Below are positions 12,835 to 59,772 of a stretch of DNA of 64,000 nt, piece by piece (the first letter of the stretch is position 1; each line of letters begins with the position of its first letter). Source of the DNA: Giardia intestinalis (taxonomy: Eukaryota); NCBI GenBank assembly GCA_000002435.2, contig CM018793.1. The stretch is one strand, 5' to 3'. A program made the translations under genes and the position numbers. A model generated the notes under the pieces. That model saw only the letters and a list, made by a program, of their open reading frames with translations, was not told the origin of the DNA and ran no database searches.

Positions 12835-12922
12835 GTTAAATTGAGTCAGGGAGTTTATAAGTGAAAACAGTGGAAGAAAGCAGTGGAACCTTAAAAATCG
12901 ATAATAAGTAAACCAAAAAATC
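12835..12922. promoter_or_regulatory. Short (~88 bp) divergent intergenic spacer, a presumed bidirectional promoter, between the 8674..12834 (-) and 12923..15370 (+) genes.
   Basis: A/T-rich initiators abut both ATGs (aaccaaaaaatcATG on +; caatttaacATG on -). Giardia promoters are short AT-rich elements. Confidence 0.3.
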
Positions 12923-15370: not shown

Positions 15371-15414
15371 GGTCTATTTCCATCTCTGATACTGATGAGG
15401 AGACAACCCATACA

Positions 15415-15421
15415 GTTCACT
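15415..15421 (-). terminator. AGTGAAC poly(A) signal that contains the TGA stop of the NEK gene.
   Basis: Minus strand reads aaAGTGAACtg, and the TGA stop is at 15417-15419. Confidence 0.45.
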
Positions 15422-17642
15422 TTCGCCGGCTGGTTCTTAGTTGTTGTAAGTGCATTTTCATCGTATTAGTGAACGTAGGGCTCATTTCGTTTAGCTTTGG
15501 TTCGCTTATAGCAAATTCTAAAGAAAACAGCAAATTAACCATGTCAATGTCGTTGTGGTTTGCTGCATAAGTCAGGGCTGTCGAACCATCCGGAGTAGCT
15601 AGGCCTCCTTCAGACCCAAGTAGTAAGGTTGCGATAGAAAGCTGGCCGGTAGCAGCTGCCTTCATCAGCGCTGTGCGTCCTTTGATATCTCGTAACCCTG
15701 TTTCCTGGCGCAGAAGGAGCTGAATGCAGTTGAATCTTTTATTCAGTACCGCATGCATAAGGGCTGTGTTACCTACTCGATCCGTCATCCTACACTCTTC
15801 GGGTAAAAGGATCTCGACGCAGTTCAAGCTGTCGGATATAGCCGCATACATAAGAGCCGTTTTGCCGTCCTCGTCGTACTGGCGAACCTGTGAAATCCAC
15901 TGCTTCACACCCTTCGAGTCTCCGATTGTCGCCGCCTTCATAAGGTTTGTGTGCCCATGAATCGAAACTCCTGTGGGAGTTCGTTTAGCTACGTGGTCTT
16001 TGGACGATAACGAGTGCGGAAGACCCTGCCGAGACTCATGGCGGCTCGGAGTCATGGTATTGACGCTTTCGGACTTGCACATGTTGCGACTAACACGGCT
16101 ATCACTTCGTTGGTTACGCGAATAGGGGCGTGAATCAGTGGTACCACGGGATCCCTCTACTTGATAGTCATATCTTGCAGTGCCGTGTCCGGAAAACGCA
16201 GAATGCTGAAGAGTAGTTGTAGCACAACCTTGGGATATTCGGTGCTTAGACGACGAAGATCTGCTTCTAGTCGAAGTGTCCCCATCCGTCATCCGTTTCA
16301 AATATGCTGGAAGGGCACTCGTGTCTATTGAAACGGTAGTCCCATCTGCAAAATGTCTAGGATTCTCAGGTATATCCTTGTGTGCACGATCAGATACCCT
16401 CACCGCCGCATCACCGTAGACGCTTGGGTTCTCCAGTAGTGAATAGTTAATCTCTTTGGGTCCTCCTGAAGGGTAGCGCTTAACTTTATCAGCACCATCG
16501 CTTTGGCCCCCGTGATCATGGAACCCTCCAGAACTGAGACCTTTACCATGAACACTCTCTAGAGATTCGAGGGGCTGCGCATGTGCATGTCCACACTGCT
16601 TGGACGATTTTCGGAGATCTATGGGATGAACACTGCTTGGCCGAGAAGTGCGGGACGTGCTAATAGATCTGCTTCCCCGCCTACTCAAGTCGTCGTCACC
16701 AGACTGCACCGTTCTATTTCCGGGTGTATGCTTCAGAGTGTAGTCAAGGTCGTTGAGAATACTAGTATCGTAGACGCCACGCTCAATCAGTCGCTTAACA
16801 GCACTTACTATTTGGGGCACCTGAGCAAGCTCAGACGAAGAGGGCCGAGCATTGTGATCTACGACTAGAATTTTATATATGAACCCAATCAGGTCATTAG
16901 AGTACATTCCCTGCGGTAGCCTGAGATTCTGTGCTGAAAATTTTGAGAACTCCGTGGTGTAATCAGTAGAATGCGAAAAATTGAAAATTGGTCTATTTGT
17001 GCACATTTCACACACTATGCAGCCAAGAGACCAAATATCCACCTTCTCGTTGTAAGGCTTCCGCAAGAGTATTTCTGGTGCCATGTATGAAAACGTACCG
17101 GCAAAGGTCATTTTCGCATCCGCCGATTCAATCACCCGCGACAAGTTGAAATCCCCTATCTTGACCGCACCAGTACTAGATAGAAATACGTTATCAGGCT
17201 TTAGATCTCTGTGTATAATCCGACCGATGCCAGAGGCATTTTCCTTGATTGGTGAGTGCAAATACCGCAAAGCCAATACCATCTGTGCCGTAATGTCCCA
17301 GACAAACGTCTCCGGGATATTTTGCCGACACTGGTGGTACTTATCAATGAGATTAGACAGAGAGCCGCTTTCTAGAAACTCCATTGAAAGCATAATCTTT
17401 CCTGGTATTTCGTTAAAAACCTCAAAATGCTGGACTAGATTTGGGTGGCTTATGCGCGGGATTATCTCTAGCTCTGTCTTCATTGCGCGCAAAACCCCAG
17501 ACGATAGCTGCCGTACTTTATACTCTTTAATAGCCACTTTCCGCTTCTTATTCGTCTCCCAGGCACTGTAAACAGTCCCGAATGCCCCACAGCCCACTGT
17601 GGCTATTTGATCGAACCCCCGGGGAACAACCAAGTCAGCCAT
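15417..17642 (-). CDS. NEK-family Ser/Thr protein kinase with C-terminal ankyrin repeats (741 aa). Predicted catalytically active.
   Basis: GCGAFGTVY glycine loop, VAIKEY, HRDLKPDNVFL, KIGDFNLSR, SYMAPE and DIWSLGCIVCEM are all present. The C-terminus has GKTALMYAA / GNTALMHAV / GRTALMKAA ankyrin repeats. True ATG with AT-rich upstream. The stop codon is embedded in AGTGAAC. Confidence 0.88.
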   Translation of the reverse strand: MADLVVPRGFDQIATVGCGAFGTVYSAWETNKKRKVAIKEYKVRQLSSGVLRAMKTELEIIPRISHPNLVQHFEVFNEIPGKIMLSMEFLESGSLSNLIDKYHQCRQNIPETFVWDITAQMVLALRYLHSPIKENASGIGRIIHRDLKPDNVFLSSTGAVKIGDFNLSRVIESADAKMTFAGTFSYMAPEILLRKPYNEKVDIWSLGCIVCEMCTNRPIFNFSHSTDYTTEFSKFSAQNLRLPQGMYSNDLIGFIYKILVVDHNARPSSSELAQVPQIVSAVKRLIERGVYDTSILNDLDYTLKHTPGNRTVQSGDDDLSRRGSRSISTSRTSRPSSVHPIDLRKSSKQCGHAHAQPLESLESVHGKGLSSGGFHDHGGQSDGADKVKRYPSGGPKEINYSLLENPSVYGDAAVRVSDRAHKDIPENPRHFADGTTVSIDTSALPAYLKRMTDGDTSTRSRSSSSKHRISQGCATTTLQHSAFSGHGTARYDYQVEGSRGTTDSRPYSRNQRSDSRVSRNMCKSESVNTMTPSRHESRQGLPHSLSSKDHVAKRTPTGVSIHGHTNLMKAATIGDSKGVKQWISQVRQYDEDGKTALMYAAISDSLNCVEILLPEECRMTDRVGNTALMHAVLNKRFNCIQLLLRQETGLRDIKGRTALMKAAATGQLSIATLLLGSEGGLATPDGSTALTYAANHNDIDMVNLLFSLEFAISEPKLNEMSPTFTNTMKMHLQQLRTSRRK

Positions 17643-17817
17643 AGGGAGATTAAATTTTAAGGTCTAAAATGTTGATTACGTTTATCTGAAATTAGAGTTG
17701 CCTGCGTGCTCTGGCAATTCGTTGTTGTATATTATTTTTAAGGAGGGGGTTCCCGGAGCAGGTTAGCAACCGCGGAGGGAGTCAAAAAATATTTAAAGTG
17801 CTACAGGAGTACAAACT

Positions 17818-44494: not shown

Positions 44495-47400
44495 CTACTC
44501 AACTAGAGATACATTGAAGCGCATTCTCACACCCATCGCTGCGAGGTCATTGGCAAGAACGAGCAGCACCATGGGTATTTGTATGAGCCGCCCGTGGCCT
44601 GTAGCCTTACATTCTCGGCAGACACTTCCGCCCAGCTGCATTCCAAGCAGACTTCCACATGCAGCGCAGACAACGTGCTCCGTGGCGTCACTCTCTGTGC
44701 AGAGTCTACCCCTAAGGCTCGCCATAGCTCCGTGGGCCAACAAAGCATCTCGCTCCATTTCTCCGAAGCGCAGGCCGCCACCCCTCTTACGCCCCTTGAT
44801 GGGCTGCTTTGTGATCTTGTCGGAGGGGCCTTCTGCGCGAACCTGGTACTTGTCTGACACCATGTGTCGTAGACGCTGATAGTAGACAACGCCAATGAAA
44901 ATGTCGGCTGGCATTGGGTCCCCAGTTATGGCGCTGTACATGACCTCCGACCCGTACCTATTAAATTGGCCTGTTTTGAGAAGTTGCTCACCAAAGACAT
45001 CTATAGCGCGACGCTCGTCACTCCACTGAAAAGGCGAAGAATCAACAAAGTCAGCGTAGTGCACGCCTATCTTGGAGGCAAGTGACTCTATAAGCATTCC
45101 GACTGTCATTCTGGATGGAAAAGCGTGGGGGTTAATGATGAGGTCGGGAACTATACCGCTGGAGGTAAAGGGCATGTCGGTTTGCCGCCACCGTATCCCC
45201 ATGATTCCTTTCTGGCCATGTCGGCTTGCAACCTTGTCTCCCACAACAGGAGTTCTGTCGTGCCGAATGACTATGCGCACGCGCTGAATAAAGTGTAGAG
45301 ATGAGCTCTCAGTTCGAGCACGGGTCTGCAACTGTCTAGAGGACTTTCTCTCCGCCTTGCTTGCGTGTGACCGCGGCGTTGCTGTTTGGTTATCTTCATT
45401 TGATTCGGAACCGCTACCTGGCTGGTTACTTATCTCATCATCCGAAGCATCATTATCAAGGTTGGATGAGTTGGAGTCTCCAGCTGGAAACGAAGAGTCC
45501 CGTTTCTTCTTTGTAGCAATATCGTTATCGGTCCAATACTCTCCTTTCGCAGCGCTTTTATGAATAACGATGACCTTCTCCACAAACCCCGGTTCGTGAT
45601 GGTACAGCTTGGTTGAGTAGCACTGCTTAGTTGGGTCATACGTTTGGTAGAATACACTGCCATGCGACAGGTATGCCCCAACGGGAGGAAGCCCGTCCTC
45701 GTCTAGCTCTGTGTCGTAGTTCTCATCCATGTGAGTCACAATATAGTCTGGGCTGCGCTTGAGGTAGGGCACGGCAGTGGCTACGGTTCGCATGTATCTC
45801 ATTAGCTTGTCGTCGTAGCAATCTATGTCGTGAACCGAATAAACGGTTCCGTGAAAAAGACCTCGCTCCAGCGAGGCCTTGTTGATCAGTGCTGCGTCCT
45901 CCATATCGTATGAGGTATACGCCGAGACTGCCACCACTAGGTTCGTGCCTGTTGGGTGGGTATCGAAGCCACCAATATCATGTATGATTGCGTTCCGCAC
46001 AAGAGGCTTCTGGGGAGTTGTAAGGAGATAGGACTTTGTATCATATTTATATGCAAGATTGCGGCACGGGATTCCCATCGTTTGCTTGAGCATTTGGCAC
46101 TCATACATGTTCCTGGGGGACTGATTGTGGTCCGAGAATGGCACCAGAAGCCCAAGAATGGAGAGAAGGGAGGTTGGGGTAATTTCTTGATGCGTAGTCA
46201 CCCCCAGGCGCACGTCGTCGCCATAGATGGCTATCTGAAGGAATATCTGCTCAAGAGGAGTAATATACTCTGGTGAATTATTAGTCAGTGAGTGGACAGG
46301 GCGATAGAATCGTCCCATGGATGTGTTCATATAGATTCCCGGAAAGAGATGATCTTTATTGCCCTTCTCTATAAAAACGACTTCGGTGTACGGGAAAATA
46401 ATAGACTTTACCTTTGCTGCGCGAATGCACGCGACAAGCTGAATTGCACGTTCATTCGTATCTAAATAGCCTAGAATAGTGCCATTGAGCACCACACAAA
46501 GGCTGTAGATATCAGAAAGAGAGGGGGAAAGCCCAAATTGTGCCAATAATATGAATAGATTTGCAATTTGATCGGTGGTTGGGGTGGAGCTGAGGACCGT
46601 GGCCTTATAGCAAAGATGCGTGAGTATTCCACATGGCGCACCATCCGGGGTGTGGACAGCACACTGGAAGCCGTAGGACTCTGGGTACAGTTTTCTAATG
46701 CTAGTGATTTTGTGAGTCGCAAAGGCGTTTCCTCGGTTTATGCAACGAAAATGCGCCAGGAAGCGGACGTAGTTTATCCTATCTGCAAGGACCGAGAGGC
46801 CACTCATATTAGAGTAGTCGTGGCCCTTGTATGCGCGCATCACTCCCGGTCCGGCAAGAGATCGCAGGCCACTAGACAAGGGCCTCCAAAGTTTGGGAGA
46901 GGCTATGTAATGAGAAATCCAAGAGTTTGAGAGCTCATAGCTGCCAATGGCTCCGGTGGAGGTGGCGTTTCGAGAGACAAGACGCATGATTTTGATGAGG
47001 GTAGACGTGACCTCTGCCTTGAAAAAGGCGCCAGGAGTAAGAGCCTCTTGCGAAGACAGCAGGTCTGGACTGTCTGGCTTTATAAAGCTACCAAAGAGCA
47101 GCAGGCATTTGCGGGCCATGAGGCACATCATATTAAACTTGGCTCTGGTGTCTTCCTTGGGGATGTTTATCAGAAGGTACTGCTCGAATAATAGGTCACA
47201 GCAGTCCACATCTGTCAAGTCATACCTATCTAACAAGGAAAGGATCATCCTGAACTTACCGCCAAGTAACTGCTTGCAGGCTTTGTGGGAGAAAATGCGA
47301 TATTTGTGAAAGTCTCGCAGCATAGCTTCAACCCGAAGGGAGACATATCCATCTTCTTTGGGGTGTGCTGAAGCACAGATGGTACAGATGGTGGAATAAA

Positions 47401-48202
47401 TCTCCTTATCTGTTGTCGAAACTAGAGCACGCAGAACCAGTATGAGAGGCACATAAATGTATCTTCCATCTATTGTGAATTTCACGCTGAGAAAGTTATC
47501 CTTTCGTGCCTGTATGACTGTGGAGTAGACGTGCCCATCTTCTCGAACCCCTTTGTAGTGCACGCCTGCAGGAGCAAATTCAGAAATCGTGGACAAAGAA
47601 CGATATTTGGTGAACGCAAGGGGGGTATTAGACAGACAGTCCAAATAAAGGCGCACAACTTTGTCTTGACCATTTGAGATAAAGTATCCCCCCGCATCAC
47701 GCTCATCCTCGCGGAGTCGTATCCTTTCTTCCCGTGTTTTCCCATGCAACAAGCAAAGCTTTGATCCTACCATGACCGGAACGTCTCCGGCATTGATGAC
47801 TACGGTCTTGGACATTGGTCCGTCCGACACCTTGAGGGTAACGTGTAGTGGGCCACAATAGTTGGCGCGTGTTTCCCGGGCAAAAGCTGGTGTAAAAGAA
47901 GGAGGCTTGATGGTTAGATTGACTATTTCGACCTTAATAGCCTTGGATGTGCTTAGGTTAATAACTATTGCAGGTGCGTGTTTGATGATTGTTGTATTTA
48001 AGGAATCAATGAAATCGTTGAATGAGTTGACGTGAGCACTGACGGCTTCTGTGTTGAAGTTCTCGTTGAACTGCGACGTATATCCAGTATGTCTTGGAGA
48101 TAGTTTGCGGCGCCACCGGTTGTCCTTATGGTCTTTCTTCTGGTTGCAGATCTTTAAATCATCTATATCCTCGGTTGGGAGGTCAGTAAGGCAGAGCGTC
48201 AT
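44495..48202 (-). CDS. RPA2: DNA-directed RNA polymerase second-largest subunit, most similar to the RNA polymerase I RPA2 (RPA135) signature (~1235 aa).
   Basis: GDKVASRHGQKGIMGI metal-site motif. C-terminal zinc ribbon CAACGSLLG...CRECKATGHG. DHNQSPRNMYECQMLKQTMGIP matches the RPA2-type NQSPRNMYQCQMGKQTMG rather than the Rpb2/Rpc2 variants. The track start at 48316 is GTG. The first ATG at 48202 has an AT-rich upstream (tcaattaaaacttATG). Confidence 0.8.
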   Translation of the reverse strand: MTLCLTDLPTEDIDDLKICNQKKDHKDNRWRRKLSPRHTGYTSQFNENFNTEAVSAHVNSFNDFIDSLNTTIIKHAPAIVINLSTSKAIKVEIVNLTIKPPSFTPAFARETRANYCGPLHVTLKVSDGPMSKTVVINAGDVPVMVGSKLCLLHGKTREERIRLREDERDAGGYFISNGQDKVVRLYLDCLSNTPLAFTKYRSLSTISEFAPAGVHYKGVREDGHVYSTVIQARKDNFLSVKFTIDGRYIYVPLILVLRALVSTTDKEIYSTICTICASAHPKEDGYVSLRVEAMLRDFHKYRIFSHKACKQLLGGKFRMILSLLDRYDLTDVDCCDLLFEQYLLINIPKEDTRAKFNMMCLMARKCLLLFGSFIKPDSPDLLSSQEALTPGAFFKAEVTSTLIKIMRLVSRNATSTGAIGSYELSNSWISHYIASPKLWRPLSSGLRSLAGPGVMRAYKGHDYSNMSGLSVLADRINYVRFLAHFRCINRGNAFATHKITSIRKLYPESYGFQCAVHTPDGAPCGILTHLCYKATVLSSTPTTDQIANLFILLAQFGLSPSLSDIYSLCVVLNGTILGYLDTNERAIQLVACIRAAKVKSIIFPYTEVVFIEKGNKDHLFPGIYMNTSMGRFYRPVHSLTNNSPEYITPLEQIFLQIAIYGDDVRLGVTTHQEITPTSLLSILGLLVPFSDHNQSPRNMYECQMLKQTMGIPCRNLAYKYDTKSYLLTTPQKPLVRNAIIHDIGGFDTHPTGTNLVVAVSAYTSYDMEDAALINKASLERGLFHGTVYSVHDIDCYDDKLMRYMRTVATAVPYLKRSPDYIVTHMDENYDTELDEDGLPPVGAYLSHGSVFYQTYDPTKQCYSTKLYHHEPGFVEKVIVIHKSAAKGEYWTDNDIATKKKRDSSFPAGDSNSSNLDNDASDDEISNQPGSGSESNEDNQTATPRSHASKAERKSSRQLQTRARTESSSLHFIQRVRIVIRHDRTPVVGDKVASRHGQKGIMGIRWRQTDMPFTSSGIVPDLIINPHAFPSRMTVGMLIESLASKIGVHYADFVDSSPFQWSDERRAIDVFGEQLLKTGQFNRYGSEVMYSAITGDPMPADIFIGVVYYQRLRHMVSDKYQVRAEGPSDKITKQPIKGRKRGGGLRFGEMERDALLAHGAMASLRGRLCTESDATEHVVCAACGSLLGMQLGGSVCRECKATGHGRLIQIPMVLLVLANDLAAMGVRMRFNVSLVE

Positions 48203-48701
48203 AAGTTTTAATTGAAATTCAGTGATTTGGAACTCTGGCCTACCATACCAATCTGGTAACGAGCTAGAGAGATTATGGGCGGCTATCCTGATTGCTATTT
48301 CTTTACTCCTCGTCACTCACTATGTCCCCTTACTTCATTTAATGCGATGTGATAGCTGAGCTACGAGTCTGGGCAGACATACCCTTTCGCTCTCCCAGTG
48401 ACATGTGTTTGATGGTATGGCCTTAAAAAGTAAATACCTCTATGCTCTGCTTAGTCTAGACGCCAATCGACACAGGACAGGATTGGTAAAAAATTGAAGC
48501 GCAATCTCAGCACTGATCAACACAGGAAAAGCTGACCGAACACACCCTGCTCTACTCACCCTGTGCACAAAAACATCCCCCCTCGGGGAACGGAAGGCTG
48601 ACCTAGCCACCCCCAAGCGTCGATCGGTGGCTCCATTATTGGGGCAGCGCGCAGCGGAATGGGCCTCGCCGGCGCGCAGCACGGGCGACCCCAAGGAGGA
48701 G

Positions 48702-49493
48702 ATGAAAGCCAGAGCTATAGACCAATTACAGGCCAACATCCATTGGAAGCAGTCCTATCAGAATAGGAAAGAGCTTGAGGAGCTCACTACGGGGAGGACA
48801 GGTGTCTCATTCATAGCGGCCAGACTAAACAACAGAGCCCCAGAAAACTTAAACATATCTGCCATAGGGTATCAAAGACGTGCTTTGAGTCCGCGCCGTA
48901 GCCTCAGTAAGTCATCTCCGCAATCAAGCATTCTGGCTCCAGATAGCCTTCGGTTCCTTTTCGAAGAAAGCCCCCAGCAAGTGCCCACGAGGATGAAGCC
49001 ACAGGAGCTTCCACGTGCAAATGGTAACTCAATGACAAGGGAGGAGATAAGCCAGGCCATGAGCAGGATTCGTGCAAGGAGAGCGGCTAGCCTGAACAAA
49101 ACATATACTCTTGATGGGAGCCCATGTACCTTGATTACCTTCAATTCCCATCTGAAGGACGAAGATGTTGATAAACTTAACGTGTCTCTCCAAACCAGGG
49201 GTGCCGGCACTTCCATAGATGGTGGCTGCATGCGAGGAGGTGCACTATCAACCGTTCTTCGTGAGATTGACCAGATTCCAGACCAGGAGCTCCTTTGTGA
49301 GTCCCCTCGTGACCCAATATCTGGCTGTGTGGACACGGCTTTCAGAAGTTACAGCAGAGGAAGCTCTACAGCAGCGCCCACTCGACCGCAGGCACAGCTG
49401 GGGTTTTCTACTATGTCACTTAAGCCATTCTTCGGAGAGTCTATGTGCCTAAACCACGCAGCAGCCCGCCACAGAGCGAAGGCTATTGCTTGA
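48702..49493 (+). CDS. Hypothetical protein (~263 aa).
   Basis: The track start at 48627 is GTG; the first ATG is at 48702 in a GC-rich context. No recognisable domains. Confidence 0.35.
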   Translation: MKARAIDQLQANIHWKQSYQNRKELEELTTGRTGVSFIAARLNNRAPENLNISAIGYQRRALSPRRSLSKSSPQSSILAPDSLRFLFEESPQQVPTRMKPQELPRANGNSMTREEISQAMSRIRARRAASLNKTYTLDGSPCTLITFNSHLKDEDVDKLNVSLQTRGAGTSIDGGCMRGGALSTVLREIDQIPDQELLCESPRDPISGCVDTAFRSYSRGSSTAAPTRPQAQLGFSTMSLKPFFGESMCLNHAAARHRAKAIA

Positions 49494-49608
49494 TAGCCAT
49501 ACAGCAATAGAAGGGCTGCTGTGCACGTGTTTGCACTTACTTTCCCACGCTGATTAAGTAAATTATATTAGCAGAATTCATAAAAAACTACCGCTTGGAT
49601 TCTACGCC

Positions 49609-51855
49609 ATGTCTATAACGACTTCTGGCCAGTGGTTCGAGGCGGTGCACCAGAGGAACTACATGCTTGTTGAGCGCTACGCAGACAGGTTTGCGTCCTC
49701 GGTCAATAGTCACGGAGAGACCGCACTTATGTTGGCTACGCGCGCGCAAGATGTCCAGATGATGGAGCTCCTGGTTGGCTATGAGCGGGGCATGTTCAAT
49801 AAGATGGGGGAAACGGCGCTTGTCATTGCCATAGACAACAACTTGTTCATGGGGATCGAGCTTTTGGCGCGGAATGAGGCTAATTCGACGGGGTATGATG
49901 GGTCGTCTCCTCTACACCACGTTGTGAGGTCAAACAAGATTGATTTTGTCCCGTACCTGGCTCCTCTTCTGGCGCAGAAGTGCGATGACGCTGGAAGGAC
50001 GCCTCTCGAGCTGGCAGCAGAACTAGGCTACACAGAAATGATGGAGCGTCTCATCCGCCACGGACTCCCTGTGGCCACGGCAGATCAGATCAATCGTGCA
50101 GCTCAAATTGCTGAGGAGCACGGATTTCCAGACTGTGCGTATGCCATCCGCAATACATCGGCGCCGCCCACCGATACGCAGGGAGGACGCCAGATTTTCA
50201 GCGGCACAGGACATATTTGCGAGAATGCCCGAAGTGATCAGTATTATAATGACGTCACTGCGAATCAACTACACGCTCACAGCGCACGAATTGTTGCACC
50301 AGTTGTGCCTCCAGAGCTAGACCCAGAGCAGATAGAGGGCATGGGGAAAGGGCACAGCATGTCCCCCTATGCAATTTACAACACAAACTGTCTAAACTGC
50401 GAAAAGAACATCACCGCTCTTGTTTCCTTGCTAATCGATAGGGATCAGACGGTGTCAGAGCTTAGACACAGACTTGATGTTGCCCAGAATGATAACGTTA
50501 TCCTCAAGAAGAAGATCCGAGCCCTGGAAGAACTTCAGGAGCGGCACTACCAGGGGTCGATAGAGCACGCCATGGCCATCGAACGCGAGGCTAACCCGGA
50601 TCGCTACGTGGGGACAAATAATACTGTCGACCCATCGCATTCTCAGATCGAAAACCAATTGGACTTCAGCCATTCGGCCACGGCAACTCCGTCGCGGCAA
50701 GCAACTACTTCCAAGCTGGGGACTTCCAGGGGGAACTCGTCGATGCAATTGACAGGAGGATTCACTGAAAGGCACCTGAAGTGTCTGTCTCCGTCTCAAC
50801 GACAACAAGTCATCGAAGACGCAGCAACTATCGAGCTGGCAAATGACTACAAGACCCTCAGAACCCTGGGAATAGACGTCTCGAATGTCGTATCAGGGAC
50901 GACAAAGCTGTCCAGTAGCTCTACTGCAGATACGCTCAGGAGATCTCTGAGTAATTCGGGCCGGGTTCGGTCTATGCCAAGTGACACTGTACTGAACTGC
51001 GAGCCGGGATCTGCTCCATACTCCACACATATTTCCCGCAGATATGGCGACTCTCCATCCCGTTCGACATCTCGCACCAGAACAGCCCTATCGAGTTCAC
51101 AAACACGTGCGGGGAGCAACACTCTGCGTCGTTCTGGCTCAGTTACAGGTACGGCCACAGGAGCAACCAAGGCACATGGATCTACCTCTACCTCAAGAGC
51201 CCAGTCCAGAACACAGTCTAGGAATCAATCCCGCACGGGCCGGTCGGGCTCCACGGTGGACCGGCAAAGACATATGCCCCCGAGCAAGACTAATGCGATG
51301 GATGAAACGGAGCTCATGCTTGCCGCGCTTAACGGTGACTTGATGCTCGTCGATCAGCTGAGACATACGCAAGTGGGGTATGTCAACAAGTTTGGTAAAA
51401 CAGCGCTGATGTACGCGGCAGAACGGAACCATGTATCCTGCGTAACGCTCCTGTTTCTGAAGGAAAGTGGAAAGCAAGATAGAGATGGGATGTCCGCCTT
51501 GATGTACGCGGCTCAGTATGGCTACATGACCGTCTGCAAGACCCTTATGTATGCCGAGGCGAAGCTCACACGACACGACGGAATGACTGCATTGATGCTT
51601 GCGGCAAACAACGGTCACGAGCTTGTGGTTTCAATTCTCTTAGAGTTCGAAGCAGGATACCAGAACGTGGAGGGCATGACGGCGCTTATGTTAGCTGCAC
51701 AGAATGGCCACCTGGAATGCTGCAAGCTGCTGTGTTCGCAGGAGATCTTTATGGTTGATAATGAGGGCCACGACGCGGTCTGGCATGCTCGGGAATACGG
51801 CAGACAAGCCATTGCAATTGAGCTTAAGCATTACAAGGACTGCTTCAGTAAATAG
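49609..51855 (+). CDS. Protein 21.1-type ankyrin-repeat protein (748 aa), paralog 1 of the tandem array. It has an N-terminal ankyrin block, a central coiled-coil, an Arg/Ser/Thr-rich low-complexity tract and a C-terminal ankyrin block.
   Basis: N-terminus SGQWFEAVHQRNY...GETALMLA shares the W-F-x-A-x(n)-GETxLM signature with the other array members. C-terminal GKTALMYAA / MSALMYAA / MTALMLAA repeats. A-rich initiator. Confidence 0.8.
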   Translation: MSITTSGQWFEAVHQRNYMLVERYADRFASSVNSHGETALMLATRAQDVQMMELLVGYERGMFNKMGETALVIAIDNNLFMGIELLARNEANSTGYDGSSPLHHVVRSNKIDFVPYLAPLLAQKCDDAGRTPLELAAELGYTEMMERLIRHGLPVATADQINRAAQIAEEHGFPDCAYAIRNTSAPPTDTQGGRQIFSGTGHICENARSDQYYNDVTANQLHAHSARIVAPVVPPELDPEQIEGMGKGHSMSPYAIYNTNCLNCEKNITALVSLLIDRDQTVSELRHRLDVAQNDNVILKKKIRALEELQERHYQGSIEHAMAIEREANPDRYVGTNNTVDPSHSQIENQLDFSHSATATPSRQATTSKLGTSRGNSSMQLTGGFTERHLKCLSPSQRQQVIEDAATIELANDYKTLRTLGIDVSNVVSGTTKLSSSSTADTLRRSLSNSGRVRSMPSDTVLNCEPGSAPYSTHISRRYGDSPSRSTSRTRTALSSSQTRAGSNTLRRSGSVTGTATGATKAHGSTSTSRAQSRTQSRNQSRTGRSGSTVDRQRHMPPSKTNAMDETELMLAALNGDLMLVDQLRHTQVGYVNKFGKTALMYAAERNHVSCVTLLFLKESGKQDRDGMSALMYAAQYGYMTVCKTLMYAEAKLTRHDGMTALMLAANNGHELVVSILLEFEAGYQNVEGMTALMLAAQNGHLECCKLLCSQEIFMVDNEGHDAVWHAREYGRQAIAIELKHYKDCFSK

Positions 51856-51911
51856 AGAGGGTGAGGGTCACAGGGGAGGATGTGCGCGAAGGCGTGTAAT
51901 CAAAAATTCAT

Positions 51912-54062
51912 ATGGGCTCGGACACAGTGACCGATTGGTTCAATGCCGCTTTTGACAATGATCACCGCTTCATCAAAGAAAATGTTGAAACGTATGCACG
52001 AACCATAGACTCCACCAAGGAGACAGCGCTCATGAAGGCTGCCAGACGCAATTGCGGGTCCGTGGTGGAGATCCTTTGCGATCATGAATCTGGGCTTTAT
52101 AATAGCCGTGGAGAGAGTGCCCTTATGCTAGCGATACAGAACAACAGCGTGGACTGTTTGGGTGTGCTCTGCGAATACGAGTCTGAACAAATGATCTCAA
52201 ATGGGGACACGCCCCTCCATTACGCCATTCGTATGGGCTGTGTTGAAGCCATCTCTTATTTGACAAGCCGTTATAAGAGAGCACGCTCTAGGGCCGACCG
52301 CACACCCCTCGAGTTTGCAGCTGAGTTGGGGTCCATTCGCTCTATCGAGCACTTGCTGGTCTCTGGTACCCCATATACACAATTAGAAATAGATCGGGCG
52401 ATTGAGCATGCTCGTGCATGTGGACAGATGGTGATCGTCTCTACTCTCCCGATCCTTTTTAAGAGGTACTGGCGTGTCGCAAATTCAAGACAAGACACAG
52501 GAGAGCCAGTAACAGTAGAAGATCTGCGAGCCTTCGAGCCTGAGCCTGCACCTGGAGGGCCTGTCGTTGACGGTCTAGCCCTGAAGAACGCTCTTTTGTC
52601 TGCCGGTGTCCCTGTCAGTGAAGCCAACTCTGTTGTCAGGTCTCTCAGCCAGCCGGCAATCCAATCTATGAGGCAGCTCGCTGCTCCAGCTCCGTGCACG
52701 GACAGCTTCAGAGAGCTTACTGATTCTATGCGACAGCTAGCGTATCCTAGTAACGAAACACTCGATCAGATCCACGAGTCGCAGAATGGGCCGCAGGTAT
52801 TGGCTTCCGCCTATCAGGATCCCGGTGCCGATGGCGTGGATTATGCGAACTTCATGGGGTTCAGAGGGAGACGTGACGACGAGTCGGTGATTTCGGCCGA
52901 TGTCGTGGATAACATCGTTGCCGTCAAGAATGCAGAGATTGCAAGGCTAGAGGACGCTCTTCGCGAGGCAAATGCTCGCCTTCGCATGGCTGAAGGTAAC
53001 GCGGCTGTGAGTCAGGCTAATAGGGTCACTGGGACCTCTTCGGGACACATAGACCGCAAGACACACGAGTATATTCCTGGGACAGTGGAGAGCCCACTCA
53101 ACTATTGTTCAAACAAGATCGCAAACGACGGAGGAGACCACCGTGCCGCTTATCGCGGGGATGTCTACTCAGCTTCTTGCAGCATCCAGTCTCCGAGCAG
53201 ATCGGGCAGGGCGAGCTCTCGTAGTAGAAGCCGCAGTAGCAGTCGTAGCACATCTCGCTCGCATTACGGTAAGGGCTATAGGCCGGAGGTCAAGCCCCGC
53301 ACCAACTCGGCGTCGAGCGTTGCTCGGTCTGATAGCGCTCGTACGTCTCAACTTAAACCTGAGACGCTGATTCCTCCTATGTCCCAGAGGCGCTTGCAAC
53401 CAGGCGCTGCTGGAGACTCTGATCTGATAATTGCAGTGAAGAACGGTGATATCATCAAATTCAGGAAGTATCTTCCCCACCAGACAAGACAGGTCGACTC
53501 TCGCGGACGCACTGCCCTCATGCATGCTGTAGATCGAAACAACACGCTGATGATCACGGAGCTGTGCAACATAGAAGCAGGAATTCAGGATGCGGATGGC
53601 ACCACGGCGCTCATGATAGCTGCGGCCCTAAATCTGCCCCTGGCTGTCTCAATGCTTGTGTCACACGAGAAGCGATTCACCAAGCGCATTGACGGCTCCA
53701 CGGCCCTTATGGCGGCTGCCTCCAATGGGAACATAGATTGTGTCGATATTCTTGCCCGCCACGAAAAGGGCATTCAGGCCCACGATGGATCAACGGCCCT
53801 AATTCATGCGATTCGTAATAATAGGCGCCGCTGTGCGTGCCTACTCTGGCCACTTGAGCACGCAATAGCAGACCGTGACGGCATCTCTCCGCGCGACTGG
53901 GCCAAAAGGTTTAACCGTCAAGAGATTCTCAAGGTGGTAGACTCGCATACCCCATCGAACACTGAGGCGAGGTCGAATATGTATCTTCCTCCTACTATAA
54001 ATCCATCCTATATGGTTCGTGATATCGAACATACTGTCAACCTCCTAAACACAAAAAAGTGA
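51912..54062 (+). CDS. Protein 21.1-type ankyrin-repeat protein (716 aa), paralog 2. It has a central coiled-coil and an RS-rich tract (SRSGRASSRSRSRSSSRSTSRS).
   Basis: N-terminus TDWFNAAFDNDHRF...KETALMKA. C-terminal GRTALMHAV / TTALMIAA / STALMAAA ankyrin repeats. Initiator caaaaattcatATG. Confidence 0.8.
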   Translation: MGSDTVTDWFNAAFDNDHRFIKENVETYARTIDSTKETALMKAARRNCGSVVEILCDHESGLYNSRGESALMLAIQNNSVDCLGVLCEYESEQMISNGDTPLHYAIRMGCVEAISYLTSRYKRARSRADRTPLEFAAELGSIRSIEHLLVSGTPYTQLEIDRAIEHARACGQMVIVSTLPILFKRYWRVANSRQDTGEPVTVEDLRAFEPEPAPGGPVVDGLALKNALLSAGVPVSEANSVVRSLSQPAIQSMRQLAAPAPCTDSFRELTDSMRQLAYPSNETLDQIHESQNGPQVLASAYQDPGADGVDYANFMGFRGRRDDESVISADVVDNIVAVKNAEIARLEDALREANARLRMAEGNAAVSQANRVTGTSSGHIDRKTHEYIPGTVESPLNYCSNKIANDGGDHRAAYRGDVYSASCSIQSPSRSGRASSRSRSRSSSRSTSRSHYGKGYRPEVKPRTNSASSVARSDSARTSQLKPETLIPPMSQRRLQPGAAGDSDLIIAVKNGDIIKFRKYLPHQTRQVDSRGRTALMHAVDRNNTLMITELCNIEAGIQDADGTTALMIAAALNLPLAVSMLVSHEKRFTKRIDGSTALMAAASNGNIDCVDILARHEKGIQAHDGSTALIHAIRNNRRRCACLLWPLEHAIADRDGISPRDWAKRFNRQEILKVVDSHTPSNTEARSNMYLPPTINPSYMVRDIEHTVNLLNTKK

Positions 54063-54131
54063 ATGTCCTGTAAGTTTGGCGCGGTGACCCCCAAGTGTAT
54101 AAAATTCTCCACCCTGTGACATTTTTAAAAA

Positions 54132-56003
54132 ATGGTCGTTTCAACGCAGTCGGACTGGTTCCGTGCCATTGCGCAGAAGAACTACGGGGAGATCTCCGCA
54201 GCCTCAGCAGCGTTTTCGAAGTCTGTAGACCAAGAAGGGAACACGGGGCTCATGATTGCTGCCTCAAATAATGACGCGGAAATGTGTCGCATGCTGGGGC
54301 CTCTCGAGAAGGGCATGTTTAATAGGCACGGCGAAAACGCCATCACCATCGCCATTAAGAAGCGTGCGCTCGACTCTGTCCCCGTTCTGGCTCAGTTTGA
54401 GGCGTTTTATCGTCTGCGTGACGATTCGACCCCGCTACATTATGCTGTTCGCAATCTCTTCCCGGAGAGCATACCCTTCCTCGTCCACTATCTAAAGGAC
54501 AAACCTGATGGTCGTGGGATGACAGCACTGGACCTTGCCGCTGATCAGGGCAACGCAGTCGCTTGTGAGACAATTCTCAAGTATGGTGTTGGCTGGACCC
54601 CACTCCAGCTAGAACGCGCCGCTGAACATGCCAATCTTCATAGCTATCACACGGTTGCAAATCTCATCAGGGATTACAAGATGGACAGTACTCTTGCAAC
54701 CAAGCTCGCGGTCGACGCCGCAGTGATTCGTAACAGCATCGTCGGAAGCACTCTTAATCCCCTGGCTGCCGTTGACCCTGTTACGGCGAGTATCGAGAAT
54801 GCCGTCTTGTCATCGAGAATCACCGACGAAATCGCGCGTACCGGCCACTCCTCGACGTTAGATGCCGTGACAGCCTCGAAGCTTATTCCCCCGTCACTGG
54901 CTACAGCGTCTGCCATTACTGCCTCCCAGCTTGCTACTCGCGCTGCACTCGCCACGACTCCCTACTATAACCCAGTAGCTGCTCAGGCCGCTGCTACCCA
55001 AGCAGCCCTAACGGCATCTCAGCTCTACAACCCTCTTGTTCCAGGGTCGGCCACCGTTGCCACTGCCGCCGCGAACGCCGCAGCCACGGCAGCTGTCCAG
55101 GACACGCTTGTTCGCTCTGCGGTTGCCAACAACGTCTTGGCAGCCCAGCGCATATATGATCCGCTGTGGTTCCAGCCTTCTCTTGCCGCCACCGCCTCGT
55201 TCGTTGCAGCCAACAGGATCAACCAGGCTCTGACTGAGAGTGCAAGGATCCGGGCCAATGCCGCCTTGCACGCCGCCAATGCCGCTGCCGCCGCTGCAAC
55301 CGACAAGTCTGCAGCGGTAGCTTCCCTCAAGGCGACACTCGATGAGCTGGCTGAGTCCACTCCTGAGGCAGCGGCTATCAATAGCATTACTGCCTCCATG
55401 CGTGCCGAGAATTACGTTCTCGACAGCGCCACTGGCCGCTATCCTAATGGGGATACAGAACTGATAAACGCCGCAAAGAATGGAAACCTCAACTCTGTCC
55501 GTATCTTGTTGAACACGCAGGCGGGACTCATCAATAACCGCGGGAAGACCGCGCTCATATGTGCTGCTGAGCGCAACCACATAGCCTGCGTCTGTGAGCT
55601 CTCGCCCAAAGAGAGCGGCATGTCGGATTATGAAGGGATGACGGCACTTATGTACGGTGCGTCGTACGGCCTTCGCGAGGTTGTTACCGCCCTGCTACAT
55701 CCTGAAAAGCGCCTTTCTAGGCCGCGTGATGGAGGCACTGCCATGATGGCTGCGGCGGCTAATGGCCACTTTGACTGCGTAAAAGTTCTGCTCGACCACG
55801 AGCATGGAATGCAGTCGTTGGACGGAACGACTGCGCTGATCCTTGCCGTTAAGTTTAACCGTAGGCACGTGGCTCAACTCCTTTACAGCACCGAGTACGA
55901 CATCAAGGACTCCATGGGCAAGTCTGCGCGTGACTGGGCGACGGAGCTCAACAGAAATGCTATCCTTGAGGATATGAAGGAGTATGAGCGTGCAAGGTCT
56001 TAG
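54132..56003 (+). CDS. Protein 21.1-type ankyrin-repeat protein (623 aa), paralog 3. It has a long Ala/Thr-rich low-complexity central region.
   Basis: N-terminus SDWFRAIAQKNY...GNTGLMIA. C-terminal GKTALICAA / MTALMYGA / GTAMMAAA / TTALILAV ankyrin repeats. Initiator atttttaaaaaATG. Confidence 0.8.
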   Translation: MVVSTQSDWFRAIAQKNYGEISAASAAFSKSVDQEGNTGLMIAASNNDAEMCRMLGPLEKGMFNRHGENAITIAIKKRALDSVPVLAQFEAFYRLRDDSTPLHYAVRNLFPESIPFLVHYLKDKPDGRGMTALDLAADQGNAVACETILKYGVGWTPLQLERAAEHANLHSYHTVANLIRDYKMDSTLATKLAVDAAVIRNSIVGSTLNPLAAVDPVTASIENAVLSSRITDEIARTGHSSTLDAVTASKLIPPSLATASAITASQLATRAALATTPYYNPVAAQAAATQAALTASQLYNPLVPGSATVATAAANAAATAAVQDTLVRSAVANNVLAAQRIYDPLWFQPSLAATASFVAANRINQALTESARIRANAALHAANAAAAAATDKSAAVASLKATLDELAESTPEAAAINSITASMRAENYVLDSATGRYPNGDTELINAAKNGNLNSVRILLNTQAGLINNRGKTALICAAERNHIACVCELSPKESGMSDYEGMTALMYGASYGLREVVTALLHPEKRLSRPRDGGTAMMAAAANGHFDCVKVLLDHEHGMQSLDGTTALILAVKFNRRHVAQLLYSTEYDIKDSMGKSARDWATELNRNAILEDMKEYERARS

Positions 56004-56069: not shown

Positions 56070-57503
56070 ATGTCCTTCCGGGATCCCGATCAGTGGTTTT
56101 GCGCGATACGGGAACGCAATTTAGAGGCTATCAAGGCGAATGCCGAGCGATTTGCAGGAGCCCGTGGGCCTCATGGAGAGACGGGACTAATGCTGGCGGC
56201 AAAACTGAATATTCCAGAAGTTGTCTTTTTCTTAGCCCCTCGTGAAAAAGGGTGCTACAATCATGACGGAGATACGGCGCTAAAACTGGCTATGGACGAA
56301 CACAATTTTGCATGCATTGATGAGCTTTTGCACTACGAGATACACCTAAAGACATCGAAGGGCTCCACACCTCTTCACTCGGCTGTTCGGCAAAATCTTC
56401 TGGGCTACCTATCTGTCTTGGTCAGATACTGGAAGAGCACACCTGATGGCCAGGGGCTGAGTGCTTTAGATCTAGCGGCGCAGCTGGGGCATGACGAAGC
56501 AGCAGAGTATCTACTCAAGCACGGCTCCTTCACTCATCAGGAGGCAGAGCACGCAAGTGAGGTTGCTAGAGGGGCAAATCACTATATGCTTGCAAGGAGC
56601 ATATTGTCTGTTGCAGCACAGTTCTGCGATCAGTCGGCAACTGAGTCGCGGCGAGCAATGGTGTCTCATCATCAAAGCAGTAGAAGTATAGGCAAATCGA
56701 TTACTGAAGACTCTGCACACGGACCTTCGCTTCCGCTCCCAATCTCTGATCGCTCCAGGTCCTTTAGACACTCATATCTTGATAAGGACAATACCGAAAC
56801 CCTTGCAAGCACGCCAGAACTCTATGCCTTTAACTGCCCACGATGTAGGACCATGTTTGAATCTATGGCTAAGCGGCTAAAAGAGACGACAGCTGAGTGT
56901 CGCAGGCTGAAAGAAGAGCTGTCTCGGAGACATGCCAGCGACAAGGGGTCTTCATCGACAAGTGCACTTGTGGAAAAGACGCCAGATCCCAAGCCAATAG
57001 GTCTTAAGACAACGCTAGCCGAGACAGCGCCCCCAGTAAGAGCCCCACAAATGCCCTTTCTGTCGTTCGACACAGACAATAATGCTCCAGGAGAACCGAG
57101 TGGGAGCAGCTTCAGCATAGCAATTGGCCACGACAACCCCCAATCGTCCATCCTTGTTCCCCCGACCATTACTCATGGACTTGATCGACAAAACATTAGT
57201 GGCAGAGCTGAGTCCACAAACCATAGCCTAAGGAGCATTCGAGGCGGGGGACCTTCACTGCACAGTGTTGAGCGGAATAATCCTCTCCACACTCCAGAAT
57301 ACTATAACGCTACGAACCAGTCTCCATCCTACCTGCAACGCATTGCAGCATTGCGTTCGCAAGCTTCAGCGACTCCGCTCCAAGTCCCTGAGCGTGCGGT
57401 TTCCCACAACTTAAATCGTAAGGTGTCTCCTTTGACTCAGGATAACTCCACATATAGCATATCGTCCCTCAGACCATCATCTTACGAGACTACTAGCCAC
57501 TAA
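56070..57503 (+). CDS. Protein 21.1-type ankyrin-repeat protein, paralog 4 (477 aa). It has the N-terminal ankyrin block, a coiled-coil and a Ser-rich tail, but lacks the C-terminal ankyrin block found in the other paralogs.
   Basis: N-terminus DQWFCAIRERNLEAIKANAERFAGARGPHGETGLMLA. Initiator gaataaaaagATG. It ends 8 nt before the next ORF opens in another frame. Confidence 0.7.
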   Translation: MSFRDPDQWFCAIRERNLEAIKANAERFAGARGPHGETGLMLAAKLNIPEVVFFLAPREKGCYNHDGDTALKLAMDEHNFACIDELLHYEIHLKTSKGSTPLHSAVRQNLLGYLSVLVRYWKSTPDGQGLSALDLAAQLGHDEAAEYLLKHGSFTHQEAEHASEVARGANHYMLARSILSVAAQFCDQSATESRRAMVSHHQSSRSIGKSITEDSAHGPSLPLPISDRSRSFRHSYLDKDNTETLASTPELYAFNCPRCRTMFESMAKRLKETTAECRRLKEELSRRHASDKGSSSTSALVEKTPDPKPIGLKTTLAETAPPVRAPQMPFLSFDTDNNAPGEPSGSSFSIAIGHDNPQSSILVPPTITHGLDRQNISGRAESTNHSLRSIRGGGPSLHSVERNNPLHTPEYYNATNQSPSYLQRIAALRSQASATPLQVPERAVSHNLNRKVSPLTQDNSTYSISSLRPSSYETTSH

Positions 57504-57571
57504 CTCGGACTTTGCATCCCAATTTAAGGCACGTTGTTACATTACTTTTGCGTCAAAAGTTGGACGCTCCA

Positions 57572-58198
57572 ATGTCACGGCCGCCAAATGGAAAGAATGA
57601 TGACAAGTGGGAGATTATGGGGGAACCAACAGAGTACGTCTACACTATAACAACTAATCGAGCTTTTACAGCCCTCATGGAGGCCGCCCGAGCGGATGCG
57701 TTAGAGGATGTTTTGAACTACTCCAGCACGCAGGCACGCATGACAACTCCTACCGGGCAGACTGCATTAATGATTGCTGCAGAAGCAGGAAACTTCAACT
57801 CTGCACGGGTGCTTTTGCCGCTGGAGAAAGGCATGCAGACGAACGACGGACGTACCGCACTCATGCATGCTGCGGCAGCAGGCTCTATCTCTCTTACCAA
57901 GCTTCTCATTCCGCACGAAGCAAAGATTACCAGTGAACGGGACGGTCACACGGCGTTGATGGAGGCAGCTAGGGAAGGCCACTGTGGGGTTGTGGAGATT
58001 CTTCTCCAGCACGAAGTCGGTATGCGGCAGTACATGGGTTTGACCGCTCTAATTTACGCCATCCATGAGGGACACAGTGAGTGCGTCGCAGCCCTTGCAG
58101 AGGCCGAGAGCCACCTCTGCTCATATGATGGGAAGAGCCCAGTTGTGCATGCACTTGACACCGGCAACAAGTATTTGTTTCCATATTTGAAGATCTGA
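57572..58198 (+). CDS. Ankyrin-repeat-only ORF (209 aa from the first ATG). It corresponds to the missing C-terminal ankyrin block of the preceding paralog, so it is either a gene-fission product or the 3' half of a frameshifted gene.
   Basis: The frame is open from 57497, and the track start at 57512 is TTG. Content: NRAFTALMEAA, GQTALMIAA, GRTALMHAA, GHTALMEAA, GLTALIYAI. The upstream ORF in frame 0 stops at 57501-57503. Confidence 0.55.
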   Translation: MSRPPNGKNDDKWEIMGEPTEYVYTITTNRAFTALMEAARADALEDVLNYSSTQARMTTPTGQTALMIAAEAGNFNSARVLLPLEKGMQTNDGRTALMHAAAAGSISLTKLLIPHEAKITSERDGHTALMEAAREGHCGVVEILLQHEVGMRQYMGLTALIYAIHEGHSECVAALAEAESHLCSYDGKSPVVHALDTGNKYLFPYLKI

Positions 58199-58209
58199 CG
58201 GGGAATTTA

Positions 58210-59772
58210 CTAGTACGCTGGAAGGCTCCTAACCATTTGGACTTCGTGTTCATCAGTCCTTCTGCCTGTCCTCTGCAGCGCTTTAGTCACGTTGCAGCTG
58301 CGGAGCATGGTGCTGGATTTAGTTCCCTCTTTGAGTATTGGTGCTGTTGCCGTATTTTGTTGTCCTCCACTAAAGTCTCTAAGGGTGACCGCTGTGCTTC
58401 GAGCCGCGTTGAACTCGTTATAATATTCTCTGTCGTATGTCTCTGATGCATCTACCAGCCTGTCAACAACCTTACGCCAATGCCCTATGTTACTTGCTTC
58501 TTTACGGCCCACAGTGGGCTTTTCGTGTTCTAGCAAGGTTGCTCTAGATGGCCCCGGCAGGGTTTCGCAGAGCTCAGATGCTGTGCGGTACTTCTTCACT
58601 CCCACGACCTGACCTGCATGGGGCATGTGGGAGTCGTCTGCATAGAGCTCCACCTTTTTCTTATACACATGCTCACTTGGGCACGGCTGGTACTCGGGTA
58701 CTATGTGTGGATTGAGTTTAGTATAGGCAATGTACTTCTCGCGATCGTGCTCTAGTTCGTACTTTGTTTCGACAGAAGGGGCGTCTTTATGCGAAGGAAC
58801 ATAGGCAGTAGGGTCGGCCTTGGACATAGGGTTATCATAAGTTTCATCTCCTATGGACCTTTTAATTCCAAAGCCCTTCTTTTCAGCTCCCGAGTAGCTG
58901 TGACTGAGTCTTCTTCCGATGAAATCTGCCGAGTAGATCGGTGGCTGCTTGTTACCACTGATTGCTCCGCATAAAAATGCATAGTCTTTATCTCTAATTG
59001 ATGGATCATGCGGGTCTTTCCCATAATATCTTCTACACTTGTCGCTGAGTTTGTTGAAGCTGTACATGGCTTTCGCCCCCTCAATGTCAATACACGATTG
59101 AGTGTCCTTGGTGGTCTTTCGCAGCGAGCCGTACAGCCTCTCCCGTTTGATACGGTCGTTTTCCAAAATGTCATCGGCCTTGAGTGAAAGGTCTCCCCGT
59201 TCGACTACGTTTCGATTGAGCAGTTTTTCATTTGTTAGGGTGCACCCCGAAGCTACAGGTTGCTCTGCGTGCTTCCACTGATAAATGGGGTTGTTGGGGT
59301 TGAAGTCTGCCTGTCTGAACTCGTATGGTTTGGGGTCGTTAATGCTTACGTCTGAACTGAGCATCATGTAGTCGATTGTTCGGGGCCTGATCTCCTTGAC
59401 CTCTGTTCTCTGTTCTGCAATGTCGCTGACGTCTAGATTTGTGTTGCGGACCTTCTTAGTGTAAAGAGGCTTTGATTTGGCACCTTCAATGTCGGATATA
59501 TCTATCTGGTCCCGCAGAAAGCGCGGGGGCGTGACGGGCCTTTCTTCGACAGTCGGTAGCTTGTAATCCGGTTCCAGTGGGTCCACGCTTCGGTTTGTTC
59601 GAAAGTCCTTGGAATGCGGTTGCGCGCCTTCGATGTCATCTGTCTTCAGCGAGGAGAAAACCCGCGTGCCAGATTGCCGTATTACGGGAAGCTTTTCCGG
59701 GTAGCAACTGATGACCTTGTCTGCCCTTAGCTCCTTTGTGTGATAGTGCAGTGGTCCATCGCCAGGCTGCAT
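58210..59772 (-). CDS. Hypothetical protein (520 aa) with a thrice-repeated D-I-E-G-A-[QK] motif.
   Basis: ORF with ATG and an A-rich initiator (aaatttcaaaaATG). Motifs are DDIEGAQPHSKDF, ISDIEGAKSKPLY and CIDIEGAKAMYSF. No family assignment is possible from sequence alone. Confidence 0.55.
   Translation of the reverse strand: MQPGDGPLHYHTKELRADKVISCYPEKLPVIRQSGTRVFSSLKTDDIEGAQPHSKDFRTNRSVDPLEPDYKLPTVEERPVTPPRFLRDQIDISDIEGAKSKPLYTKKVRNTNLDVSDIAEQRTEVKEIRPRTIDYMMLSSDVSINDPKPYEFRQADFNPNNPIYQWKHAEQPVASGCTLTNEKLLNRNVVERGDLSLKADDILENDRIKRERLYGSLRKTTKDTQSCIDIEGAKAMYSFNKLSDKCRRYYGKDPHDPSIRDKDYAFLCGAISGNKQPPIYSADFIGRRLSHSYSGAEKKGFGIKRSIGDETYDNPMSKADPTAYVPSHKDAPSVETKYELEHDREKYIAYTKLNPHIVPEYQPCPSEHVYKKKVELYADDSHMPHAGQVVGVKKYRTASELCETLPGPSRATLLEHEKPTVGRKEASNIGHWRKVVDRLVDASETYDREYYNEFNAARSTAVTLRDFSGGQQNTATAPILKEGTKSSTMLRSCNVTKALQRTGRRTDEHEVQMVRSLPAY

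Follow-up and report, generated by a model that had tools for sequence, protein, structure and literature searches.

Ankyrin repeats are protein-interaction modules, and Giardia holds a very large and poorly understood family of proteins built on them, the ankyrin repeat proteins (ARPs) or Protein 21.1 family. In the 2020 WB reference, the ankyrin-only 'Protein 21.1' genes were renamed ARP-1, a group of 267 members, and genes with a kinase, zinc-finger or other Pfam domain besides ankyrin were assigned to NEK, ARP-2 or ARP-3; members of the family are often found at synteny breaks (PMC7000408). Frameshifted ARP 'pseudo copies' also occur in the WB reference. A different kind of divided gene is found in Giardia HSP90 and dynein heavy chains, whose separate pieces hold conserved halves of an intron, with signals of the GTATGT and CTRACACACAG types, and are joined again at the RNA level. 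The locus described here lies in a stretch of 64,000 nucleotides (nt) of Giardia intestinalis contig CM018793.1 (assembly GCA_000002435.2), hereafter the window, which an exact look-up assigns to isolate WB C6 and in which a tandem array of ARP genes ends in two adjacent open reading frames (ORFs), ORF4 and ORF5. The segment between them, 57440-57640, is read here, with a probability of roughly 85%, as an ordinary intergenic junction between two bona fide, separately expressed Giardia genes.

If so, translation of ORF4, which runs from an N-terminal ankyrin domain through a CxxC/helical segment to a conserved tail, would end at a genuine stop codon. ORF5 would have a transcript of its own, starting in a conserved AT-rich box just upstream, and its translation would begin at the conserved ATG at 57572. 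The pair would most probably have arisen when a fourth array member split anciently into N- and C-terminal parts, both of which selection would then have kept as ankyrin-type protein-interaction modules. The elements of the junction are as follows, with the evidence for each in brackets (dN/dS, the ratio of nonsynonymous to synonymous substitution rates).

56070..57503, plus strand: ORF4, an ankyrin repeat protein of the ARP-1 / Protein 21.1 type, 477 amino acids (aa) (sequence identity, orthologs, dN/dS, Pfam)
57501..57503, plus strand: TAA, the genuine stop codon of ORF4 (position common to all lineages)
57504..57571, plus strand: intergenic spacer of 68 nt, its 5' part unconstrained (ortholog spacers vary)
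57544..57565, plus strand: AT-rich box ACTTTTGCGTCAAAAGTTGGAC, with its core TCAAAAGTTGGAC at 57553-57565; putative initiator or promoter element of ORF5
57572..58198, plus strand: ORF5, a stand-alone ankyrin protein of 208 aa (conserved start and length, dN/dS, Pfam, AlphaFold2)

The ORF4 product ends in ...SSYETTSH, directly followed by the TAA. A second frame is closed by a TAG at 57494-57496 and open from 57497 on, such that the two open frames overlap at 57497-57500 only; its first ATG is the one at 57572, from which the 208 codons of ORF5 are counted, and it closes with a TGA whose last base is 58198. The spacer contains the motifs 'aatttaagg' (57522-57530) and 'caaaag' (57554-57559). 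These features (stop, TAG, first ATG, 4-nt overlap, spacer and motifs) had been named in the initial annotation and hold on re-inspection. So does its statement that a spacer of 68 bp is normal for Giardia, given that the spacers inside the array, from the first paralog (P1) to ORF4, measure 56, 69 and 66 nt. That the ORF5 frame is open back to 57497 is not significant, as about one third of 68-nt stretches are stop-free by chance.

Two conserved ORFs, with the stop codon of one and the start codon of the other in place, with purifying selection on both and with a variable frame relation and spacer length, are found wherever the locus was compared. The comparison comprised WB and four further G. 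duodenalis lineages, represented by five loci (L001-L005) that were located via ORF4 orthologs. The first of these, L001, comes from isolate P15 (assemblage E). One lineage, probably assemblage B and 71% identical to WB, is represented by L002 and L003, assembled independently of each other; SRR3177763 is part of a collection of G. intestinalis isolates. The L004 and L005 lineages are 67-68% identical to WB. ORF4 orthologs are 476 (P15), 474 (L002/L003), 480 (L004) and 487 aa (L005) long. In all five lineages the C-terminus reads ...SSY..SH and the stop follows at the same position, encoded as TAA in WB and P15, TAG in L002/L003 and TGA in L004 and L005. At the other end of the spacer, the ORF5 start ATGTCA and the length of 208 aa are constant in the five lineages (the L005 contig ends before the stop codon), and the second ATG of ORF5 in WB (57617) is not conserved. 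Spacer lengths of 68, 70, 62, 61 and 61 nt in WB, P15, L002/L003, L004 and L005, respectively, differ by amounts that are not multiples of three. The frame of ORF5 relative to ORF4 is +2 in WB and L002/L003 and +1 in P15, L004 and L005, and the spacers of P15 and L004 each contain an in-frame stop.

Nei-Gojobori estimates of dN/dS, for which dS is saturated between the deep lineages, are 0.09-0.14 for ORF4 as a whole (0.05-0.09 over the final 147 codons) and, again with saturated dS, 0.03-0.05 for ORF5. Strong purifying selection thus acts on both: ORF4 and ORF5 are functional coding sequences, and their division into two genes is older than the radiation of the G. duodenalis assemblages. The initial annotation had proposed examining the orthologous locus in other isolates, and P15, the B-like lineage (in two assemblies) and two further lineages all have two genes there.

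The spacer itself is unevenly conserved. In the five-lineage alignment, with identity taken among deeply diverged pairs, the first ~40 nt after the ORF4 stop are essentially random (32% identity), with indels that are not multiples of three. The box at 57544-57565, which lies 7-28 nt upstream of the ORF5 ATG, reaches 62% identity; its core is TCAAAAGTTGGAC, which takes the form TCAYAAAARTTKGAMC when the lineages are taken together. Constraint is absent once more from the 6-7 nt directly preceding the ATG (33%). Similar A-rich tracts are found no more than 30 nt from the ATGs of the other array genes. According to transcription start site sequencing, transcription in Giardia initiates in an AT-rich consensus and the 5' untranslated regions are mostly shorter than 20 nt (PMC3792122). 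Because it fits both the AT-rich Giardia initiator and these very short leaders, the box is read as the likely core promoter or initiator of ORF5.

Two points weigh against separate expression. The separate transcription of ORF5 is an inference, and every lineage lacks a canonical AGURAA poly(A) hexamer in the stretch from the ORF4 stop to ORF5, which is weak evidence. The missing hexamer is uninformative on co-transcription, because P3 (the third paralog of the array) and ORF5 lack it as well, and so do many other genes: neither AGUAAA nor AGUGAA is used by about 40% of the genes in Giardia (PMC9014877). From -40 to +400 nt of the stops of P3, ORF4 and ORF5 (56003, 57503 and 58198), no AGTRAA is present, and the same is found at the orthologous loci. 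The motif is seen on the stop codons of P1 (AGTAAA, 51847-51852) and of the second paralog, P2 (AGTGAA, 54058-54063). Look-ups in the literature for transcript starts and ends and for gene identifiers returned nothing on ORF4 or ORF5 and identified P3 alone (GL50803_17060), with 159 and 133 Oxford Nanopore reads.

An indel introduced in sequencing or assembly, or a frameshift of recent date that makes paralog 4 a pseudogene in WB, is suggested by the geometry of the WB frames: inserting 1 nt or deleting 2 nt at a single point within 57497-57500 would join them into a P2-like protein of ~710 aa. The initial annotation had named such a junction as one option and two genuine genes with a normal Giardia spacer as the other. 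The first option is ruled out, its chances being practically nil: the exact 477-aa ORF4 product is recorded on 144 contigs, including a 4.0-Mb chromosome-scale contig, isolate DH has a 477-aa form as well, the orthologs in other assemblages are naturally two genes, an outcome that the initial annotation itself had named as speaking against a recent disruption, and the split is common to five lineages rather than private to one assembly. Nor is constraint relaxed on either side of the junction, as the dN/dS values above indicate. Because the stop position is shared but occupied by three different codons, the frames vary and spacer stops are found in P15 and L004, a shared indel artefact or recent frameshift is excluded. 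The second option is the one that the conserved stop and start and the purifying selection on both ORFs bear out.

Production of one protein from both ORFs, by -1/+1 programmed frameshifting, stop-codon bypass, or cis- or trans-splicing, is very improbable. A few Giardia genes are indeed cis- and trans-spliced (PMC9014877), the lack of a canonical poly(A) hexamer between ORF4 and ORF5 would suit a joint transcript, and a variable frame is by itself compatible with an intron. However, the region of the overlap, 57489-57503 (ACT ACT AGC CAC TAA), contains no slippery heptamer of the X_XXY_YYZ form, the frame relation differs between lineages, and the spacers of P15 and L004 have in-frame stops. 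Splicing fares no better: GTATGT, CTRAC..CAG and AGTRAA are all absent from the WB spacer, and across the five lineages neither a GTATGT 5' splice site nor a CTRAC..CAG branch/3' motif is conserved or suitably placed. P15 alone has the string CTAACTCAG across the stop codon and a GTATGT inside ORF5, matches that are in the wrong order and position for splice motifs. Moreover, conservation of the ORF4 protein continues to the last residues before its stop, and ORF5 starts at a conserved ATG with the conserved AT-rich box ahead of it. Also unlikely, though less so, is a conserved 'split ARP' in which the halves encoded by ORF4 and ORF5 are co-expressed and re-associate non-covalently into an architecture like that of the paralogs. 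As no AGURAA hexamer separates the ORFs, such co-expression could come from overlapping or read-through transcripts. If true, Giardia would have a natural two-piece ankyrin scaffold associated with the cytoskeleton, and with it a rare operon-like pair of genes. None of the results supports this reading directly. Two separately expressed genes, whose products may nonetheless be functionally linked, are the preferred reading.

The two products differ in layout. Pfam Ank_2 matches ORF4 at residues about 80-153 (E=3e-16), and its repeats are N-terminal only: an N-ankyrin domain (~1-185) is followed by a CxxC motif and long helix (~255-290) and by a conserved tail. No ankyrin match is found beyond residue 186, so that ORF4 lacks the C-terminal block which array-type members hold on the same polypeptide; this absence had been noticed in the initial annotation and is also what the Pfam and profile scans return. 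The N-domain, the 'QWF' domain of the array-type members, is 33-37% identical to those of P1-P3, and ORF5 is without it. For ORF4, the AlphaFold2 model has low confidence (predicted local distance difference test score, pLDDT, of 50, from a five-sequence alignment) and is a weak hint only; it suggests a helical-repeat N-domain, a long helix (~257-290) after a conserved CPRC motif, and a disordered tail. In ORF5, Ank_2 matches three stretches (E=2.4e-34) and ankyrin sequence extends throughout. Its AlphaFold2 model (pLDDT 86.4, predicted template modelling score 0.80) has ~30 unstructured N-terminal residues and then six ankyrin-type helix pairs, and ORF5 is accordingly predicted to fold alone as an ankyrin solenoid. 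Both ORFs agree with the definition of ARP-1, as Pfam ankyrin families alone are matched (E<=0.01), with no kinase, zinc-finger or other domain.

An observation apart from the junction concerns the ORF4 tail, residues 331-477 (57060-57500). It is predicted to be disordered, with a pLDDT of about 30 from a shallow alignment, yet it is the part whose dN/dS falls to 0.05-0.09, and it contains the invariant motifs PQMPFLSFD, IAIG.DNPQSS, HTPEY and SLRPSSY. This combination suggests that the tail holds short linear interaction motifs.

How the two genes arose is a separate matter, for which the remaining array members serve as reference. Three tandem full-length paralogs, each with a linker between its N-ankyrin domain and its C-ankyrin block, occupy 49609..56003 on the plus strand:

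49609..51855, plus strand: P1, 748 aa, N- and C-terminal ankyrin block
51912..54062, plus strand: P2, 716 aa, N- and C-terminal ankyrin block
54132..56003, plus strand: P3 (GL50803_17060, 'Protein 21.1'; PMC7761642), 623 aa, N- and C-terminal ankyrin block

Ancient fission of a fourth member of this N-ankyrin - linker - C-ankyrin type is, at slightly better than even odds, the most likely origin of the pair, as judged from architecture and position. A profile of ORF4 orthologs was searched against 1.84 billion representative proteins. Outside the orthologs, its matches cover the N-domain only, with a few reaching into the early linker and P1 extending to profile position 322. An ORF4-like N-terminal domain is present in 61 representatives, and with the ORF5 profile a C-terminal ankyrin block is detected in 53 of them (87%); four of the 61, namely ORF4, P0198 and two short entries, have no ankyrin beyond the N-domain. 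The six-repeat C-blocks of P1, P2 and P3 align with ORF5 in collinear order (40, 40 and 37% identity, gap-free for P2 and P3), ORF5 lies directly downstream of ORF4 on the same strand at a normal intergenic distance, and the combined length of ORF4 and ORF5 (477 + 208 = 685 aa) is inside the P1-P3 range of 623-748 aa.

Synteny with more distant relatives was followed from the neighbouring gene on the other side of ORF5, which served as anchor:

58210..59772, minus strand: convergent gene of 520 aa with no Pfam domain (Pfam scan, synteny searches)

In L008, a contig from a distant Giardia-like organism (Logan SRR30592944, 57% GC), the anchor gene is 48% identical and is followed by an ORF4-like gene of 657 aa (11774..13747, minus strand) that has no C-block. 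Of the N-domains in the array, that of ORF4 matches its own best (39.5% identity), and no ORF5 or ankyrin remnant was found downstream of this gene. P0198, which is 79% identical to this gene, has the same architecture.

These genes count against fission, as do several other results. No unsplit ortholog was found, the only full-length match of the profile being the G. duodenalis cluster. ORF5 scores 79-102 bits against the C-blocks of the array and up to 111 bits against unrelated C-blocks of the family, and the similarity ranks of N- and C-domains are uncorrelated (rho 0.14). This last test, of whether both domains share their nearest relatives, gave no signal because ankyrin similarity is too saturated for phylogeny. 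It is a real, if tentative, possibility that the two-gene state is ancient but did not come about by fission: ORF4 would have been truncated or would never have had a C-block, and ORF5 would be a small ankyrin gene of separate descent that came to lie downstream by chance, such as a copy of part of a neighbour's C-block or an ARP gene moved by transposition. The syntenic L008 gene and P0198, both without a C-block and with no ORF5 downstream, speak for such a history. So does the similarity of ORF5 to the array C-blocks, which is not above the family background, and stand-alone ankyrin proteins of ~200 aa exist elsewhere in Giardia, such as a 205-aa ARP-1 of G. muris. Against it stand the 87% of N-domain relatives that do carry a C-block and the position, strand, spacing and six-repeat layout of ORF5, which are those that fission would leave. 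In addition, the L008 array is rearranged, and ORF5 may have moved or been lost there. The proposal of a gene fission in the initial annotation is thus reasonable from architecture and position, but not demonstrated, as no unsplit ortholog was found. Its description of ORF5 as exactly the missing ankyrin block overstates the sequence evidence, as the C-blocks of P1-P3 are no closer to ORF5 than unrelated ones are.

The rearrangement in L008 can be followed over 10001-18483. After the ORF4-like gene comes a divergent protein of 527 aa (13729..15312) with a low-complexity N-terminus and about nine ankyrin repeats, and then a P2-like (15334..17151) and a P3-like gene (17188..); the 527-aa, P2-like and P3-like genes are on the opposite strand from the ORF4-like gene. 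Other candidate relatives were rejected. The 205-aa G. muris ARP-1 (P0039) is not an ORF5 ortholog, as its neighbourhood is unrelated and not syntenic, and P0036 (locus L007) is a generic ankyrin protein in an unrelated context. Locus L009, reached via the 520-aa anchor, contains no ankyrin array. No syntenic G. muris locus was found; the one locus obtained (P0039) is non-syntenic, and the anchor search returned no G. muris entry.

ORF4 is already known: it is annotated in the WB reference as a 477-aa ARP-1, its product being identical to KAE8305356.1 / XP_037902261.1 / D3KGJ4, 'Ankyrin repeat protein 1'. P1-P3 bear the same annotation in WB, whereas Protein 21.1 is the name used for ORF4 and P1 orthologs in P15. 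For ORF5, a homology search and exact look-ups of six ORF5 variants in protein collections gave no ortholog and no self-hit. The versions that were not retrieved include those at 57572-58198 of the window, 5502-6128 of L001, 5488-6114 of L002 and 5475-6101 of L004; the gene is nonetheless called on contigs, with 208 aa on P15 and L004, 193 aa on L002/L003 (from an internal ATG) and 235 aa on L005 (from an upstream start). In L005, the ORF5 frame is open upstream into the 3' end of ORF4 (3587-3667), which yields the overlapping 235-aa prediction; the true start is likely the conserved ATG 81 nt further downstream.

Further observations concern the proximal end of the array. P1 exists in a 748-aa form, in the WB reference and DH, and in a 730-aa form, in many independent WB-like assemblies; the difference, at a guess, sits in its low-complexity linker rich in Ser, Thr and Arg. 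Between the RNA polymerase I RPA2 gene (44495..48316, minus strand) and P1 lies a gap of ~1.3 kb (window 48317-49608), which is unusually long for the compact Giardia genome. Only a 288-aa ORF (48627..49493) with no Pfam match and an antisense 154-aa ORF were found in it.

For annotation, it follows that the junction should not be 'repaired' into one gene or flagged as a pseudogene, and that the 208-aa ORF5, beginning with the ATG at 57572, should remain annotated as a real gene that is strongly conserved. The pair offers a clean, datable example of a change in domain architecture, by fission or domain loss, within the ARP / Protein 21.1 family, and the AT-rich box is a probable added example of a constrained Giardia core-promoter element. 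As an ordinary architectural variant in a large, fast-evolving family, it leaves the current view of Giardia biology unchanged.

Compared with the trans-spliced HSP90 and dynein heavy chain genes, the locus is alike in dividing a protein architecture between two ORFs. It differs in having none of their intron signals; instead, ORF4 has its own conserved stop and ORF5 its own conserved start. The frameshifted ARP 'pseudo copies' of the WB reference resemble it in that one indel would suffice in WB to join the two abutting frames, whereas here the split is found in all lineages, stops and frames differ among them, and both sides have a dN/dS far below 1. Another parallel is offered by the split-gene pairs that fission leaves in eukaryotic multigene families. 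Like these, ORF4 and ORF5 are neighbours on one strand that correspond, in collinear order, to the N- and C-parts of full-length paralogs; purifying selection acts on each half, and the downstream half has its own start and an AT-rich upstream element. The difference is that the unsplit references are here paralogs rather than orthologs, so that the fission is a proposed one. The closest described system remains the ARP-1 / Protein 21.1 family, as ORF4 and ORF5 hold only ankyrin repeats of the Giardia 'G-TALM-AA' type. Within that family, most relatives with an ORF4-type N-domain carry the C-terminal six-repeat block themselves, whereas at this locus the N-domain and a six-repeat block are encoded by two adjacent genes.

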